From: Mayamaea pseudoterrestris
Lineage: Eukaryota
Assembly: GCA_027923505.1 (NCBI GenBank)
Contig: BROI01000013.1
Span: forward strand, 62,001-126,000
Direction: 5' to 3'
DNA length: 64,000 bases
Made by a program: the position numbers and the translations under genes. A model generated the notes under the pieces. That model worked only from the letters and a program-made list of their open reading frames with translations. It was not told the DNA's origin and searched no databases. Shown one piece after another: positions 14,359 to 54,815 of this stretch (positions are counted from its first letter, which is position 1; every line of letters starts with the position of its first letter).

Positions 14359-15720
14359 ATGCGCCTTATCAATTCATTTTTCCTCGTTGTTACACATGCC
14401 TATTGCCTGATAAAGAGGGTAACTGGGTTCCAACTAACGCCAGGAAGATGGAGAAGTAATGGCGTATTGAGACCAAGCACTACGTTGCTCGAACGAACAC
14501 CAGGTAAAGGCTTCGGCAGCAAGATGAAAGCAAACGGTCCACTCGCTGACTTGAGCGAGGAACGGAAGGCCAATCTCTTTCAAGCGCTTTTACGAGACTT
14601 GCAGATTGAAGGCGTTCCATTGCTTGGTGTCGACGCAACCCAAGTGCATACGCTGCAAGCCGCTGTCTGGACGACGCTGAGTGAACTTTGCGACAGTCCA
14701 ATCGCACAAAAAGCGTGTTTAGTGTTCGAATACATTCCGATTAGCGCACTCCAACCATTTGTCGATGACTTTATGATTCTCAAGACGCAGACGGAAAAGA
14801 CAATGCACCTAGCCGAGATTCATCGCGTCAGTCTCTCCATGGTTGGTAAAGGAGCAGGTCCAGCAATCCTCATTGAAATTGCTAATGCCACTGACCGTAG
14901 TCAGCATGAAAGATCAGACACTTTCTCGCATACTGATAATGAGAAATGCACGTCGGCCATGAAGGCTTTTATCAAGCGCGTCGTCATTGGTGAAAGTGCT
15001 TGTCCACATGTTGATTCGACGGAACATGCTCCCAGCAATCTTGCGAACGTTACTCCTCAACGCATCGAGTATAAAGTTTGTCAGAAACTGGACGCCTTTC
15101 ATGTTCTCTCTAGTTTTTGGAATTCTGTCTGTGAACTGTCCGCCTGTACCGAAATTGCAACATTGGTGCTCGCATTGCCGAGCGTCGGCACCAGTCAATC
15201 CAACTCGGTAGAATCCAATCATGCACGCTTTGTCAATGTTGCCGAACTATTGAGTCGTTATCTATGCCTTTACAAGGGCGACGGTGTCTACGAGCTGCTG
15301 CACTTTCATCCCAATTATACGCGCGACTGGATCAATCCGCGCGATCGCCCTGCCCACGGACATTTACCTCCTACCAGTTGGCTCGCACCTATGCTGCGAC
15401 GTAATGGAAATGATGACGCGGCCAGTCGGTTGACCAAGGATGAATATGAGTGCTCCAACTTTCAGCGACGATCGCCAGTCCCAGCCGTTTGCATCAAGCG
15501 CGTCGAACAATTAGAGCATGCCACGGATGGAGCAAGTGGTATAATTCAATTAAAGCTGGACGATGGATCGACGGCTTCAGCGAGTGGGGTACCAACTTAC
15601 GCGAGAAACACGATGCGTCTTGCAAGTGCCGGACAGGAAGCTCTCCAGAAGGCTCTGGATCTAGACCGAGCCTTGCTAAATACGTATCCGCAAGCAAATG
15701 AAACCGTCACTGAGGATTAG
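14359..15720 (+). CDS. DUF1415-like protein, probably plastid-targeted
   Basis: 453-aa ORF; VVIG..ACP, HFHPNY, NFQRRSPVP and YARNT.RL resemble the DUF1415 pattern; hydrophobic N-terminus then VTG-F. Confidence 0.55.
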   Translation: MRLINSFFLVVTHAYCLIKRVTGFQLTPGRWRSNGVLRPSTTLLERTPGKGFGSKMKANGPLADLSEERKANLFQALLRDLQIEGVPLLGVDATQVHTLQAAVWTTLSELCDSPIAQKACLVFEYIPISALQPFVDDFMILKTQTEKTMHLAEIHRVSLSMVGKGAGPAILIEIANATDRSQHERSDTFSHTDNEKCTSAMKAFIKRVVIGESACPHVDSTEHAPSNLANVTPQRIEYKVCQKLDAFHVLSSFWNSVCELSACTEIATLVLALPSVGTSQSNSVESNHARFVNVAELLSRYLCLYKGDGVYELLHFHPNYTRDWINPRDRPAHGHLPPTSWLAPMLRRNGNDDAASRLTKDEYECSNFQRRSPVPAVCIKRVEQLEHATDGASGIIQLKLDDGSTASASGVPTYARNTMRLASAGQEALQKALDLDRALLNTYPQANETVTED

Positions 15721-15843
15721 TAAAATCAATGTTCTAAACAGATGATTCATATATGGTCTACCGTAGTTGCAAGAACGTGGTATCTCAAATAGCATTCGCA
15801 AATACATTACAGTTTGACATGCATCGTCATATTTGCAACTTGG

Positions 15844-17108
15844 CTAGAAAAGGTCCAAAAGAAAGTCACCAAGCTCCGAATCGTCAAGAGGCGGAATAAT
15901 GTCGTCCATTGCCAGCGTTTCCAAAAACGCCAAGTCTTCCGGGCCTTCGTCCTGGTAAACCTCCGACGCTTGGAGGGACGAAATAACATCGTCTGGCTTG
16001 TTCGTGTCAACCGTGAAAGCCGCAGGTTCATCAAGAGTGTCGTTGGGAACTAAAGGAATTGTGCCATTGCCGCTGATCTTCACTGCTGGAATGGTGATCT
16101 TATCGGGCCAAAAAAACCATCATGTTTAATTGACCCAGTGGGAAAATTAAGTGGACCAAGCTTTAGAGTTTCAAGTGTCGCTGCTCAACAAGTGGCAAGC
16201 GTACTTAGGACAGATGATAAGTGCATCATGCATGTCAGCAAGGGTGAAACTCGAAGGAACTTGGTCCATGGGTGATAGATTCGTGTCGCTGCTGGACGCG
16301 AGATCATCTTACGCGGCAACAGCAATTCATCCTTTTCGCTCTCTTGACAAAACTCCAAAAGGGAACCAACAACTTGGGTGGGACTGACAGGAGCGGCGAC
16401 GGCGGAAAACAAGTCACTTGAAGGAATCGACATGGGAATAGGCGTAGTAACGGACGATTCGCGCAGGTGGGAAGCGCGTGAGATTACAGCATCAGGAACG
16501 ATAAAAGGAGAGTCAAAGGTCTCGCGTTCGTCTTCCAAGCTTGCAATCTCCTTCATAATGCACTGGTACTTGACCTTGTACTCTTCAACCTCCTTCTCAA
16601 GCTCGACAATGCGTTCGCGCTGTCGCTGGCGCGAGGCTGCCGCAGACTCTCGATTTCGCTTGCGACGTTCCTCCTGTTTATAAAAGATGATAAAAGATTA
16701 GAGGAGTCAGTATTCATAGTTGCCTGATTATCAATCGCCCAATAAAGAGCGACTAAAAAAGGCCTTGGTGAAACGTACCCGACGCCACGCCGCAAGGTCC
16801 TCTTTGGTCATCTCCTTGGCAATCTCTACGGGCGGCTCATACTTCATTTGCAATCGCTTGTTCGTTGCTTCAAGAATTTTGCGTTTCTTGACCATGGGCG
16901 CTGCGAACTCCTCAACGTCGCTAATAACCTCCGGGCGAACTACATCGAAGCTGCTGGTGCTCGTAAGAACGTCTGGCCAAGCCAAAATATCCGGCGGATC
17001 CAGAGTGCATTTGCGAATGGCATCAAGGGCTCCATCGCAAGAAACAACAGAAAGCTCTGATGAGGAGATTGTACTAGGAAGCACGCGAGAAAAGGACGAG
17101 TCGGCCAT
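15844..17108 (-). CDS. bZIP transcription factor, HAC1/XBP1/bZIP60-like candidate; spliceosomal intron 16674-16778 plus second intron (proposed unconventional) 16086-16291
   Basis: After GT-AG splicing reads WRREERRKRNRESAAASRQRQRERIVELEKEVEEYKVKY (basic region plus zipper). Unspliced frame stops at 16185-16187. Downstream acidic ORF 15844-16083 is reached only by a second splice. Confidence 0.9.
16052..16336 (-). other. Putative IRE1-type twin stem-loop RNA structure (unconventional intron 16086-16291)
   Basis: 5' hairpin TCGCGTC-CAGCAGC-GACACGA (loop 16294-16288); 3' hairpin TTC-CAGCAGT-GAA (loop 16088-16082); flanking exons complementary (TTGCCGC/GCGGCAA, TGATCT/AGATCA, AATTG/CAATT, AAAGG/CCTTT). 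Confidence 0.75.
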
Positions 17109-17243
17109 GGTCAAGATGATCGGTCTTGGGTGGGAATTGCGAGGAGAAGGGATTTCGGTTTTATGCGCGTCTGGCCGTGAACCAACGTCAGTCCGACGTG
17201 CGTCAGAACTTTTCGATCGGATGCAGTTCAACCACACATTACA

Positions 17244-17257
17244 ATGACGTGTCCATC
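17244..17257. promoter_or_regulatory. UPRE/CRE-like ATGACGTGT element about 140 bp upstream of the bZIP start
   Basis: ATGACGTGTCCATC seen directly; resembles ACGT-core UPR elements bound by XBP1/bZIP60-type factors. Confidence 0.35.
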
Positions 17258-17750
17258 AAGTTGCGAACGAAGAATTGTTCTCTCGAGTATTTGGGCGTGA
17301 TCAGCTATTTCTCTACTATCAGGAATCTCTAGCAACATCGCTACAGGTACTTTGGGACAATAAACATACACAACACTGACGGGTTGTTCGAAAGGCAAAT
17401 ACCGGTAGGCCCACTATTCTATTCAAAAGTACTAAATGTGTGATACTTATTCCTAGTACACTAATCGCATCGTCTGCACATGGATCTCCTAAACTAAGGG
17501 TACTTCTACAGCACCAGCTCAGGATCAGCGCCTCCAACATTATCAACTCTTTCAACGCCTTCTCCGTAGAAGCCGACAGCTCATGAGCAAAGTCGAGCGC
17601 ATGAACGTGCAAGCCTACTTCCAGCACGGCACTGTGCTTGCCCTTGGTGTCGTAGACAATCACTCCACTATAACATGCACCGACTTTGCACAGTTGTCAG
17701 ATTCCCAGCAATCTTAACAAATGTCAAGAGTATGTCATTGGTCGCGCTCT

Positions 17751-49203: not shown

Positions 49204-52200
49204 GTTTCTTCGGCTCATCGACACGTACGCAACGATCGACCGAAGCAACTGAGAAAATACTCATTGTACATGAAATCAAAGGAAACCAATATTTGTCATA
49301 TGGAAGATTCAACGAAGATCCCGACTCAAACTCGGACGAAGCGAGCCGACGCTCGCTGGATTCATCGACTATAACGGTTCGCGCGATCCCGATGGATTCA
49401 TCCGTACGACGAACAGATCATCACTTTCGTCGGGCGCTCCTACAAGAAATATACCAAGGAGCTGCTCAAGGGCATGCGCAACGTGGAACTGAGATTCCTG
49501 ACGAGCCTGCACGTCCAACTGAAGGATGCCGACACGACGGACTCGGACTGGTCCATAATGCTCGAGGAATACAAGGCCGACAAGAAAGAGCATGTCGAGC
49601 GCGTGCGTGTATACTTCCGACTTCCTCGTTGGTCTCTACGCCGTGTTGCATGGACAATGCACGGAGCGTATGAAGGATCGTGTCAAGTCGCACGCCAAGT
49701 TCCGAGACGCCGAGGAGGACACGGACGGAATTGTTGCTGGCGATTATCAAGGAGATCTCGCATACGTACGAAGGGCGCTGCAAACTTGTGGATCAAGTCG
49801 TGACATTCAAGCTGAGTTGTTCGGACGTACTCAAGGAGCGCGCGAAAGCCTGCAGAAATATTACGAAAGCATGGTCACGCTGGCAGACGTGGCGAAGGGG
49901 CGGTTGGCGTCACGATGCACAACGAGATTGTGGCGCTGGAACACTGCCGAGGATGACAATCGTAACAAGGCGAACAAGGAGGATATCAAGGCCGCCGAAG
50001 AGCTCGAGCTTGCGATGCTTTTCGTGCGTGGCGCCACGGGCGAATACGCTGGGCAGTGCAAGCACTTGCGCAACTGCTACCTCGACGGGCACGACAACTT
50101 CCCGTTGACGATCCACGATGCATACAACATCATGCAGCGTCGTGAGCATGCGGATGGAGAAGCCACGTTGCCAACGAACGAGGGCGTGGCGTTTCACACG
50201 ACTGGTACAGCGCGTGACCCTCCCAGATGCTGGACCTGTCAACAGGTTGGTCATGTGCAGCGAGACTGTCCTACGAGAACGGAGTCTACGGAGAGTGCGC
50301 CGGCTGCAGAGGCTAGTTGGGGGCGCAGCACTTCACGCTGGGTAGCGAGGAAGAAAGCGATGACGACGATGAGGTCGGATACATGTTCGCGCAGCCGCCG
50401 AAGGTGAACATCTCGAAGAAGGCTGTGCTCTTGGACAATCAGTCGACAGTGGATCTGTTCTGCAACGCCAAGATGCTGACGAACATTCGCCCGGTGCCAA
50501 CGTGGATGGTGACTGGCGCAACGCTGGTACAGTAAGGACGAACATGATGGGCGACCTGGAGGGCTATGGTCCGGTGTGGTGGTATCCGCAGGGACTGGCG
50601 AACATTTTGAGTTTGGCGCAAGTCCGCAAGAAGTTTACCGTGGAGTATCTCATGCACGGCGTGGATCGTCCAATGTTCGTTGTGGAGAAGCCGGATGGTA
50701 AGCAGCGAGAGTTTGTCGAGACTGACTCTGGGCTGTATGTTTGCGAGAGCTTTTCGAAGGGCAAGCGCAGCGATGTCAAGGATGGAGTGGCGATGTTGAC
50801 TACGGTAGACGATAACCGTACTAACTACACCAATGATGACTATTTACGCGCTGTTAGAGCTAGGGAACTGCAAATCAAAATTGGACGGCCAAGCCTCAAG
50901 GATTACCTGCGCATCGTTACTAGCAATCAGTTGCCGAACTGTCCTGTGACGAAGGCCGACATCCTGGCTGCTGAGCACATCTTTGGACCAGATGTTGGCT
51001 CGTTAAAGGAAAGACGACGCGTCGCGCGTCGCATCTGGTGAAGCCTGCGATTGTTGAGCAGCTTCCACCGGCTATCATGAGTCGCTATCGAGACGTTACT
51101 CTTTGTGCTGACATCATGTATATCAACAAAGTCCCTATGTTGGTGACGTTCTCCCGCAGCATTCGTTTTGCTACGGTTGAGGTGATTCAAAACCGTACGC
51201 TTCCGGTTATGTTGAAGGCAATCGAGTCTGTGTTGAAGATTTACGCACGCGGTGGGTTCCGGGTCGTCGCGGCTCTGATGGATGGGGAGTTCGCTCCAAT
51301 GCTTGGCGCGTTGGCTGATCTCGGAGTGGCGCTCAATGCGACATCTGAGGATGAACACGTTGGCGAAATTGAACGTTTTATCCGTGTCGTGAAAGAACGG
51401 GTGCGCGCGACATACAACACGTTGCCATTTAAGCACGTGCCGGCACGCTTGGTTATCGAAATGACGAAGTCTGCCGTGTTTTGCTGAATGCGTTTCCGAA
51501 CGAGCGTGGCATTTCGAAGGATCTCAGTCCACGCACTATTGTGACTGGTCAGACAGTTGACTTTAATCGGCATTGCAAGTATGAATTTGGTCAGTATGTG
51601 CAAACGCATGAGTCGCACAGCAATGACATGCAGGCGCGCACGATCGGTGCGCTGGCTCTGCGCCCGACTGGTAATGTGCAGGGTGGGTTTTATTTCTCAG
51701 TTTGTCTTCGGGCAAGTTCTGAATCGTGGGCACGCTACGCCTTTGCCCATGCCTGATGATGTCATTGAGCGCGTGCATCGTCTCGCTCGTCAACAGAAGG
51801 CCAATCCGGGCATCGTGTTCATGGACCGCCACCGTGTTGCGGAGGCTGCTGAGCCAGTCATGTGGCACGAAGATGACGCCGAGGATGATGATGACTCTGA
51901 TTATGATGACGACGCTTCTCGCGGTGACGACGACTCTGCCGGCGGAAGCGAAGGAGTGAATGCGACCGATGACGACGACGACGACGACGATGGTGCTGAC
52001 GGCGCAATCGAAGGAGTGCCGAACGACGAGGATGGTGAGGCCATTGACGGCGAACTTGACGACGCGCCAGCCGTGGATGATGGCGAAATTGAAGGAGTGC
52101 CCGATGAAGGCGAAATTGAAGGAGTGCCAGCTGCTGCAGACGAAGAGGATTTCGATGCGCGCTATGGCCCACGCACTGGTCGGTATGGCCTGCGTGCGCG

Positions 52201-53711
52201 CAAACCTCGCTCGTTCGCTCATTTGTTCACGCTCGACGCTGCAGAGGAAGTGTCGGAGCCACTCGTCACGGCACAGATGAATATGCGACAAGGTTTAAAG
52301 GCTTTTGGCGATGCTGGAGTGGAGGCAGTGCGCAAGGAAATGCAGCAGCTACACGACAGGCACGTCATGAAGGCAGTCCCCAATGCACTCTGACTCCGCA
52401 GCAGCGCAAGGACGCTCTGGCGTATTTGATGTTTCTCAAGCGCAAGAGATGCGGGACTGTGAAGGGACGCGGATGCGCGGATGGACGCAAGCAACGAGCA
52501 TACACTGCAAAGGAAGACGCAGCATCTCCAACGATAGCGACAGAGGCCATCTTTCTGACAGCTATCATTGACGCTATGGAAGGGCGCGAGGTTGCTGTGG
52601 TTGATGTACCGGGTGCTTTCATGCAAGCGGAAATGGATGAGTTGGTGCACGTTCGTTTCACTGGGAAGATGGTGGAGCTACTGTTGGAAATTGATCGCGA
52701 GATGTACGAGCCTTGCGTCACAATGGAGAATGGCGAGAAAGTCATGTATGTTGAATTACTCATGGCGCTTTATGGTACGCTTCGAGCAGCGCGACTATTC
52801 TGGGAGAAGTTGTCCGCAAAATTGCTTGAGTGGGGCTTCGAGAAGAACCCGTACGATCCGTGTGTGTGCAACAAGATTGTCAATGGGAAGCAAATCACCG
52901 TGGGATGGCACGTGGACGATTTGAAGATTTCGCACGTCGACGTGAGCGTAGTGGATGAGTTCATCGCGCAGATGGATGAGGAGTTTGGCAAGGAGACTCC
53001 AATGAATAAGTCACGCGGAAAAGTGCACGACTACCTCGGCATGGTATTGGACTATACTAAGCCTGGAGAAGTAGCAATCAACATGGTTGACTATGTGAAG
53101 AACATCCTGCATCATGCGCCAGACGACATGGATGGAACGGCAGCTACTCCGGCAGCCAGTCACTTGTTTCAGATATCGGAAAATCCTGTCATGTTGAGCG
53201 AAGCGAAGAAGCAGATTTTTGTGACGATTGTGATGCAGTGTCTGTATCTGAGTCAGCGAGCGCGACCGGATATTCGCACAGCGATTTCTTTCTTGAGCAC
53301 GAGGCTGCAGCAGCCTGACGAAGACGACTATAAGAAGGCTGCAAGAGTGATTAAATATTTACGCGGAAGCGTGGACATGGTGTTGACGCTGAAGGCGGAC
53401 CAGTCCGGGATAGTCCAGTGGTGGGTGGATGCGTCGTACGCGGTGCACCCAGACATGAAGGGTCACACTGGTGGAACAATGACACTTGGCCAAGGATCAG
53501 TGTACAGTACGTCGGCTAAACAGAAGTTGGTAACAAGAAGCTCGACGGAGAGCGAAGTTGTGGGAGTTCATGATGTGCTACCGCAGTTGCTGTGGACAGG
53601 ATATTTTCTGAAGGCGCAAGGTTTCGGGGTCAAAGACACGAAATTGTATCAAGACAATATGAGTTCAATGCTGTTGGAAAAGAATGGCAGAAGCTCAAGT
53701 ACAAAGCGCAC
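48944..53711 (+). mobile_element. Ty1/copia LTR retrotransposon (diatom CoDi-like), frameshifted, truncated in RNase H
   Basis: Gag knuckle CWTCQQVGHVQRDC; protease LLDNQSTVDLF; integrase ADIMY..DGEF..EHVGEIERFIRVVKER; RT KGRGCADG, DVPGAF, LYG, WHVDDL; RNase H VDASYAVH, SSTESE, YQDNMS; order PR-IN-RT-RH. Confidence 0.95.
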
Positions 53712-54815
53712 TCATCTTCCTCCTCATCTCTCTTTCATATCAACAGCTTCTTTTTTATTTCCCTTCACTGACCTGCTTGCTGCTTCCGCGCCGCCCCTTG
53801 GTGTTTGGTTTCGCCATCGTCAATCGGAGCTGCAAGATCCGCTGCGCTGAAATAATGTGCACGTTCGTTTCGCGTCGTGCCCCGCCAGGAAAGATTTTGT
53901 GTCGTAGCGGTACAATTAAATACCGGTGCGATGTGACGTCGAACTGCCTGCCGACTGCCGACGACGAGATCCTTGTATCAAACGAACGGAATTCTTTCCT
54001 AGCCACCTTGATTCCAACAGCAACGAGTGAATTGATAAGCTCCATAACAAAGAAAGCTTTGAAATTCTAAAAATGGAGGAAAGGAGTCGTTGATAAATCA
54101 AAGAGCATTACGTATCGTATACGGTATCAACAAGTTCCATGGTCGAATGGGTGAAATTGGAATGATGGTGGAAGGACTTCTTCGCTTCTTCGTAGATCAA
54201 GCCCTTTCAGTATCTCAATAACTATATCAAGCTGCTTTTGGTCGAGGCCTTGAAGCAATTTGACAGAATCCATATCTGTAGTTACATGCTGGATTAATGA
54301 GTATGAGCATGCATAGATCCGGTTCTTATGACGTTCGTTGCGCAAATACATTTTTTTGTGGTACAGTCTGGTGGTGTCGTGGCTTTTATATGATAAAGAA
54401 CATATCCGTCTTTCAAACCAATCGAACCGAAGTGCAAACGGCGAAAAGGTAGTGTATCTCGGCTGACAAGATATGCCTTGACTAGCGCAAGGTCCATGGC
54501 GGTAGCGTCTGTTACCACTTATAGTTCCGTCCAGCGATTGTCAGTGCGAAATCATTTTAGCGCAAGCGACTACACCAGCAGGACTTGTTACGAGAATGTG
54601 TACACTGGAGGAAACTGAGAAAATAGGGAGTGTATTACCGTGCGCCGCCTTTCGCAAGGCAAAGAGAACTCTAATCCAATTTCAATTTTTGACCCAGACA
54701 ATGCTGTCGTTCCTTGCCGCAAGCCATGTTTCGATAATTGAACAAGCGGAATTATAAAATAACTTTAAGTAACGTATATTACTCAATTACACACATAAAT
54801 ATATTGCCCTGCCCG

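Follow-up and report, generated by a model that had tools for sequence, protein, structure and literature searches.

Splicing of bZIP transcription factor messenger RNAs (mRNAs) outside the spliceosome is best described for HAC1, XBP1 and bZIP60, whose splice sites are, according to the accessible text of one source, defined by two stem-loops with conserved bases in loops of 7 nucleotides (nt) (PMC3216516). The rule given in the available portions of two sources is that IRE1 cleaves, the ends are ligated and the protein acquires a new C-terminus that activates (PMC3216516; PMC13149111). For XBP1, an excerpted report attributes splicing to a zippering of the exons into an extended stem after cleavage (PMC4687415), and a review passage describes Chlamydomonas bZIP1 as activated by unconventional splicing (PMC13545648). 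Here, a bZIP gene of Mayamaea pseudoterrestris, a pennate diatom (Bacillariophyta), is compared with these systems. It lies in a 64,000-nt stretch of contig BROI01000013.1 (assembly GCA_027923505.1, positions 62,001 to 126,000), which is called the window and whose numbering is used throughout. The locus is very probably the diatom counterpart of HAC1, XBP1 and bZIP60, that is, a bZIP mRNA with a spliceosome-independent intron that serves as a substrate of IRE1, because its architecture, the place of its cuts and what splicing brings about all fit the known rule. The IRE1 twin-hairpin class itself is known, and what is new is an intron of the HAC1/XBP1/bZIP60 type in a diatom bZIP gene. The diatom case differs from the three described ones in a long intron (closest to yeast HAC1), in the combination of a relaxed 5' loop with a frozen 3' loop and in an unusually long helix, and the likeness of the protein is known at the level of the bZIP fold.

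The elements of the gene are listed below; X1 to X4 denote four public sequencing runs from one study.

17108..15844, minus strand: bZIP gene, with the ATG at 17108, the stop codon of the spliced form at 15846-15844 and that of the unspliced form at 16187-16185
17108..16779, minus strand: exon 1, 110 codons; contigs of X2 to X4 join 16779 to 16673
16778..16674, minus strand: spliceosomal intron, GT..AG, 105 nt, seen as 'skips 105, CT..AC' on the plus strand in X2, X3 and X4
16673..16292, minus strand: exon 2, whose last base is G16292 at the 5' cut, from the X2 to X4 contigs and translation
16670..16518, minus strand: bZIP domain, basic region RRKRNRESAAASRQRQRER and zipper (Pfam PF00170)
16335..16313, minus strand: 5' strand of the exon-exon helix ('zipper'), from the minimum-energy fold and the comparison of cognate duplexes across loci
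16301..16281, minus strand: hairpin of the 5' splice site, with CAGCAGC as its loop (16294..16288) and the cut falling between 16292 and 16291
16291..16086, minus strand: unconventional intron, 206 nt, without canonical ends, containing the stop codon of the unspliced form (16187-16185)
16099..16075, minus strand: hairpin of the 3' splice site, with CAGCAGU as its loop (16088..16082), the cut falling between 16086 and 16085, and an outer GAUC/GAUC stem
16073..16052, minus strand: 3' strand of the exon-exon helix, from the minimum-energy fold and the duplex comparison
16085..15844, minus strand: exon 3, the acidic tail VKISGNG...DDSELGDFLLDLF, translated only once spliced

Exon 2 opens at 16673 with the bZIP basic region EERRKRNRESAAASRQRQRER, and its protein (P0001) is identified as a bZIP protein by Pfam matches to PF00170 (E 2.8e-9, residues 2-52) and PF07716 (E 1.8e-7). 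About 127 codons into the exon the frame reads ...LLLPRKMISRPA, and 35 further codons lead to the stop at 16187-16185. The twin hairpins, their 7-nt loops, the cut positions and the 206-nt distance between the cuts, all drawn from the letters alone by the first-pass annotation, are present as described there. Hairpin 1, UCGCGUC[CAGCAGC]GACACGA, has six pairs and one C.A mismatch; hairpin 2 reads GAUC-ACCA-UUC[CAGCAGU]GAA-GAUC. Cutting after G16292 and G16086 takes out 16291..16086 and joins ...KMISRPA to VKISGNG..., and translation bears out the claim that this frame shift leads into an otherwise orphan acidic open reading frame (ORF) (15844..16083), which ends in DFLLDLF before its stop codon. 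Translated together, exon 1 and the unspliced frame give a protein with 100% identity to the 272-residue P0029, which NCBI names 'hypothetical protein MPSEU_000653300 [Mayamaea pseudoterrestris]'. Public annotation holds this unspliced form only, which explains why it misses the presumed active protein, and the acidic tail (16085..15847) is unannotated coding sequence.

Both forms of the RNA are found in public data from Mayamaea. None of the four runs is recorded as RNA, and their contigs were compared with 15600..17300. X1 is DNA-like and covers the whole stretch in one piece with no joints. X2, X3 and X4 lack the 105-nt GT-AG intron and therefore hold complementary DNA (cDNA). Each of these three contains two alternative unitigs between 16061 and 16318, namely an unspliced one of 258 nt (16061..16318) that retains the 206-nt segment and a spliced one of 52 nt that 'skips 206', joining 16082 to 16289 with 8 letters that fit either side. 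The predicted 206-nt junction thus matches the joint in all three cDNA-like runs, with the unspliced form alongside. An 8-nt repeat, UCCAGCAG, flanks the joint and gives it nine equivalent placements, one of which corresponds to cuts at 16292 and 16086 and none of which has GT-AG, GC-AG or AT-AC ends. The depths of the spliced and unspliced unitigs (18.2/18.7, 8/13.5 and 12.6/35.4 in the three runs) are of the same order, and they are no measure of expression.

Relatives of the exon-2 protein were found both among longer proteins (24 matches among 2844 candidates) and among proteins of similar length (74 among 334), with Seminavis robusta, Ditylum brightwellii and a Durinskia transcriptome among the named sources. 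They have in common a peptide ...(K)MISR(P/Q)A within otherwise divergent linkers, and after it they fall into three classes, which stop, continue for a few unspliced residues or read VKI... and on into an acidic terminus, for example ...EFGEFLLDAVDWL. P0096/P0103 and P0097/P0106, two pairs that carry names of MMETSP transcripts, match completely as far as the junction and from there part into an unspliced and a spliced form. A search with the acidic tail alone (P0002), which is too short and too low in complexity to be searched by sequence, against 1.84 billion representatives gave one weak match (E 8.8e-4). As a separate observation, the NCBI model P0026 from Seminavis robusta reads ...KISRPNASVKIT... 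across the junction, with three more residues than ...ISRPA-VKI...; these may be a gene-finder's substitute splice or belong to a different paralog.

Scanned with alignment A1, metagenome contigs gave 430 matching stretches, 152 of which encode relatives; the best 80 of these were retained as diatom-type loci and sorted by scripts, and all locus counts refer to them. Both sites are present in 56 of the 80 (52 by the strict pattern, 3 by a relaxed one and L018 by an ORF-guided search), and 17 are already joined exactly at xxG^CAGUGAAGAU, where ^ marks the cut or joint. Six reach a contig end or show no 3' site within the 4-422 nt that follow the 5' site, and one ends before the site. Intron lengths range from 122 to 512 nt and fall into all three classes modulo 3, and the joined frame is nevertheless always ...S-R-P-A^V-K-I, which opens 67-131 codons whatever the length of the intron. 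The other two frames past the junction close after 1 and 4-64 codons, and the unspliced frame meets a stop 1-35 codons past the cut. Among the unspliced sequences (55 loci and the window), 50 of 56 reach a stop after joining. The acidic C-terminal motif is matched in 42 of these 50, and the other eight carry variants of it (LDLLVD(T/S)LDGEFD-like in seven, LSSFLIDAGDWL in L057); a EFGEFLLDAVDWL-like motif is likewise matched in 17/17 spliced loci. Two pairs of loci are spliced and unspliced twins with identical flanks, L036/L034 (200/200 and 61/61) and L063/L077 (200/200 and 150/150). Eight loci form a divergent subgroup (L046, L056, L059, L061, L064, L065, L073 and L075) with introns of 122-142 nt, 5' exons that end ...(I/S)(S/P)R(Q/H)A and tails that read ...LDLLVD(T/S)LDGEFD..., which may be a paralog or another lineage.

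Conservation at the two sites was read from alignments A2 (5' site) and A3 (3' site), which hold 45 distinct sequences each. The 3' site is invariant as UUCC-N-GCAGUGAAG in 45/45, so that its loop is C-N-G^C-A-G-U in every sequence; N is mostly A (37 sequences), otherwise C (7) or G (1). In the 3' hairpin 97.3% of cells are paired, as against 33-57% when the partners are slid. The 5' loop retains G^C in 45/45 and an A at position 5 in 43/45, and the inner three pairs of its hairpin hold in 44-45 of 45, except for pair 19/31, which is unpaired in three. Changes on both sides of a pair are seen in the row of the window, which alone has U-A (not A-U) at pair 20/30 and G-C at pair 17/33 (the latter read in A2), and one further U-A occurs at pair 19/31 of the 5' hairpin. 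The hairpins are supported by conservation, and compensatory change is limited to these single exceptions. Spliced contigs exist from loci with AUG^CA or AAG^CA in the 5' loop; relaxed 5' loops are therefore used.

Apart from the loops, the intron ends beside the hairpins are conserved as well, reading ...GAAUCAUUCACC after the 5' hairpin (A2 columns 36-44, window about 16280..16270) and ...GRCCNCUAAGAUCA before the 3' hairpin (A3 columns 8-23, window about 16108..16095). Counting these ends, GAUC, a palindrome, or a close match to it is found at four places around the two sites, and we suspect that these repeats have a role in switching between the folds before and after cleavage.

The extensive pairing of the flanking exons that the first-pass annotation had noticed is recovered in the minimum-energy fold of 16040..16345, which contains the helix between 16313..16335 and 16052..16073 and has an energy of -99 kcal/mol (z = -5.22; 0/100 dinucleotide shuffles fold as well). 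RNAalifold on 16 spliced ortholog mRNAs missed this outer helix, apparently due to a pairing register that shifts between lineages, and duplex energies with permutation and same-locus controls were therefore used, computed between two separate strands, one being the 40 nt that precede the 5' hairpin and the other the 40 nt that follow the 3' hairpin. The mean for cognate duplexes is -26.5 kcal/mol (60 distinct loci) versus -15.8 for all non-cognate pairs and -12.8 for shuffled strands, and in a permutation of partners 0/10000 reached a mean as low as the observed one (permuted mean -16.0, standard deviation 0.54). Controls from the same locus gave -12.0 (60 nt further down), -10.9 (60 nt further up) and -13.5 kcal/mol (reversed strand), and the cognate duplex was the most stable of the four in 58 of 59 loci. 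The two strands are only 45% identical (median) across loci, and the complementarity is therefore kept while the sequence drifts. What RNAalifold does find around the new junction is a conserved inner hairpin, GAUCU.CUCG with UGAAGAUC, which puts the re-created CAGCAG into an 8-nt loop. Sites, frame logic and exon-exon pairing are thus all conserved in diatom-type orthologs. Covariation across orthologs, which had been suggested as a check, turned out divided, in that the exon-exon helix co-varies while the hairpin columns do so weakly or not at all. At position 16059, in the 3' strand of the helix, the plus strand of the window has T, which is A in the X3 and X4 contigs but not in those of X1 and X2; this may be a difference between alleles or strains.

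These data fit a sequence of events modelled on the known systems. In the unspliced mRNA the long exon-exon helix would keep the two small hairpins side by side, and an RNase of the IRE1 type would cut after the third base, a G, of each 7-nt loop. The exon ends containing GAUC would then re-pair, the 206-nt intron would leave and a tRNA-type ligase, of either the RtcB or the Trl1 kind, would join the exons. The join drops the in-frame stop and places an acidic tail of about 80 residues, presumably an activation domain, behind the bZIP domain, and endoplasmic reticulum (ER) stress would in this way convert a tail-less factor into an active one that drives ER-stress genes. The 25 large ORFs of the window include neither IRE1 nor an RNA ligase, and the genome beyond the window was not searched for IRE1, RtcB or Trl1.

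Several observations weigh against this assignment. Most orthologs do not keep the textbook CNG^CNGN in their 5' loop, with C at position 1 in 21/45 (A in 24) and G at position 6 in 8/45. The covariation of the 5' hairpin is weak: 10/500 shuffles reach its share of paired cells and 18/500 its covariation score, which is exceeded when the structure is slid by +1 (0.118 vs 0.102). The inner 3' stem never varies and speaks neither for nor against pairing, and the failure of RNAalifold to find the outer helix has been mentioned. In the window, the minimum-energy fold closes both loops further, and 7-nt loops need an additional 3.8 kcal/mol, although enforcing both leaves the helix and the remaining fold unchanged. 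Loops of the form CNGCNGN with 7 nt and at least three closing pairs number 33 on both strands of the window, versus 29 expected. The three RNA-like runs share one study and carry no record as RNA. The diatom-type introns are, moreover, much longer than the 26 nt of XBP1 and the 23 nt given for bZIP60 in the accessible text of its description (PMC3216516). Pairs of CNGCNGN loops at most 600 nt apart number 10 in the window versus about 4 expected, and an Rfam search of 15700..17200 gave no relevant match, only three chance-level matches to microRNAs and small nucleolar RNAs (E 3.6-7). By itself, the motif is about as frequent in the window as chance would make it; this pair stands out from chance through its long helix, the frame that it restores, the RNA contigs and its conservation.

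Among the other explanations, the one that survives best, though it is unlikely, is that the intron is spliceosome-independent and cut by another endonuclease, such as the tRNA-splicing endonuclease or an unknown RNase, with no link to ER stress. The deviation of most 5' loops from the canonical IRE1 consensus would suit this, as would the similar depths of both forms in runs whose condition is unrecorded and possibly unstressed, and the role given to IRE1 comes from analogy. The cuts, however, follow the third base of a 7-nt loop at both sites, and the 3' loop is CNG^CAGN in 45/45, as in HAC1, XBP1 and bZIP60 according to the available text (PMC3216516). A bZIP host that gains an acidic tail is, in addition, the logic of every known IRE1 substrate. 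A bulge-helix-bulge, as for the tRNA endonuclease, is not predicted at the sites, and this variant was ruled out, as the cuts sit in hairpin loops.

A spliceosomal intron that is often retained, either with non-canonical ends or with a GT at 16312 or 16204 and the AG at 16087-16086, is considerably less probable still. The first-pass annotation had itself warned that canonical donors with the same downstream frame would lead gene predictors to hide this intron. Both donors, GTAAGA at 16312 and GTACGC at 16204, are present and give that frame, and the 3' boundary (...CAUUCCAG^) resembles a pyrimidine-rich acceptor. The joint in 3/3 cDNA-like runs nevertheless skips 206 nt, not the 227 or 119 nt of these donors, with all nine placements non-canonical, and 17/17 spliced ortholog contigs are joined at G^CAGUGAAGAU. 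A GC-AG reading predicts a product one base shorter than that observed. No joint from 16312 or 16204 occurs in the contigs of X1 to X4, which drop rare variants and hence cannot prove absence. The GT at 16312 is unconserved, as the same alignment columns hold GT in one other of the 44 orthologous A2 rows (read by eye). The warning is thereby answered in part, on the side of the missing joints and the unconserved donor, while rare use could escape the contigs. Conserved hairpins and a co-varying exon-exon helix are, finally, foreign to spliceosomal introns. An artefact, in which reverse transcriptase or an assembler jumped across the 8-nt direct repeat between sites brought close by RNA structure, is hardly credible: the repeat at both boundaries, the strong helix that sets the sites side by side and the single study behind all three runs would favour it, but the same joint recurs in 17/80 loci from other assemblies, including AUG^CA and AAG^CA loops with about three shared letters, it always restores the long, selection-conserved frame whatever the intron length while both other exon-3 frames close early, and the spliced unitigs match the unspliced ones in order of depth. 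Both the spliceosomal intron and the artefact are poorly compatible with a conserved, frame-restoring, non-canonical joint in many assemblies.

With IRE1 as the preferred nuclease, the locus can be set against each known system in turn. The likeness to HAC1 of Saccharomyces cerevisiae (Ire1/Trl1) lies in a bZIP mRNA with an intron of hundreds of nt that is cut after G3 in twin 7-nt loops and whose splicing swaps the C-terminus for a tail, activating in HAC1 and presumably so in the diatom, and in the unspliced frame, which in many diatom-type orthologs ends at or just past the splice site. In HAC1, the intron pairs with the 5' untranslated region and thereby represses translation, whereas the long helix of the diatoms forms between the two exons; their 5' loop is, in addition, relaxed in most orthologs. 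Metazoan XBP1 (IRE1alpha/RtcB) is similar in its twin hairpins with CNG^CAGN loops and in splicing that adds an activation domain, which for the diatom tail is presumed by analogy, and the diatom junction hairpin (GAUCU.CUCG/UGAAGAUC) resembles the exon zippering of XBP1 as described in the excerpted report (PMC4687415). It differs in that some diatom orthologs have an intron that is a multiple of 3, where the stop is removed without a frame shift, and in that no hydrophobic pause segment like that of XBP1u is conserved in the orthologs, many of which stop at ...ISRPA. Plant bZIP60 (IRE1A/B) shares with the diatom gene its origin in a photosynthetic eukaryote and, going by the accessible text, two stem-loops with conserved loop bases and unconventional splicing (PMC3216516). 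In the same text (PMC3216516) bZIP60 splicing deletes a transmembrane domain, whereas the unspliced tails of the diatoms are short and unconserved, and the stramenopile lineage is far from green plants.

A full-text literature search, which returned mostly abstracts and left subscription journals largely uncovered, found no IRE1 substrate in diatoms or in any stramenopile. Hooks and Griffiths-Jones reportedly surveyed Hac1/Xbp1 introns in fungi and animals in 2011, and their survey could list other lineages. Very few targets of IRE1-mediated splicing are known. A 2026 review names, in its available portion, only XBP1, HAC1 and bZIP60 as targets (PMC13149111), a tunicamycin study in Phaeodactylum makes no mention of IRE1, bZIP or splicing (PMC9585838), and diatoms and algae are unmentioned in a further article (PMC4891664). 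The locus is the likely master regulator, the missing switch, of the diatom unfolded-protein response, and the 206-nt difference in size between its two forms provides a ready assay. More than 45 natural variants of the two sites and the zipper can be used for studying substrate recognition by IRE1, and the ratio of spliced to unspliced RNA could be used in the field as a marker that diatom populations are under ER stress, because metatranscriptome contigs already contain both forms.

More tentatively, the unequal conservation of the two sites might reflect an asymmetric IRE1 switch in diatoms, in which the 3' site is frozen in its canonical form, the 5' site keeps only G^CA and the co-varying helix of about 25-30 base pairs compensates by presenting the weak 5' site. 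This is a possibility to which we give distinctly less than even weight. If it held, diatom IRE1 would recognise its substrate less by the loop consensus than by RNA architecture. Substantial splicing would then take place without added stress, because in three runs the spliced unitig reaches a depth of the same order as the unspliced one, and the factor would act as a standing regulator of secretory load, for instance in building the cell wall, in addition to being an emergency switch. A substrate so far from those of animals, fungi and plants would also speak for a very ancient origin of the IRE1-bZIP module.

The window's remaining large ORFs are ordinary genes of a eukaryote. At 49592..53850, a retrotransposon remnant is suggested by ORFs that encode a zinc knuckle (PF00098) and a reverse transcriptase of the copia type (PF07727).

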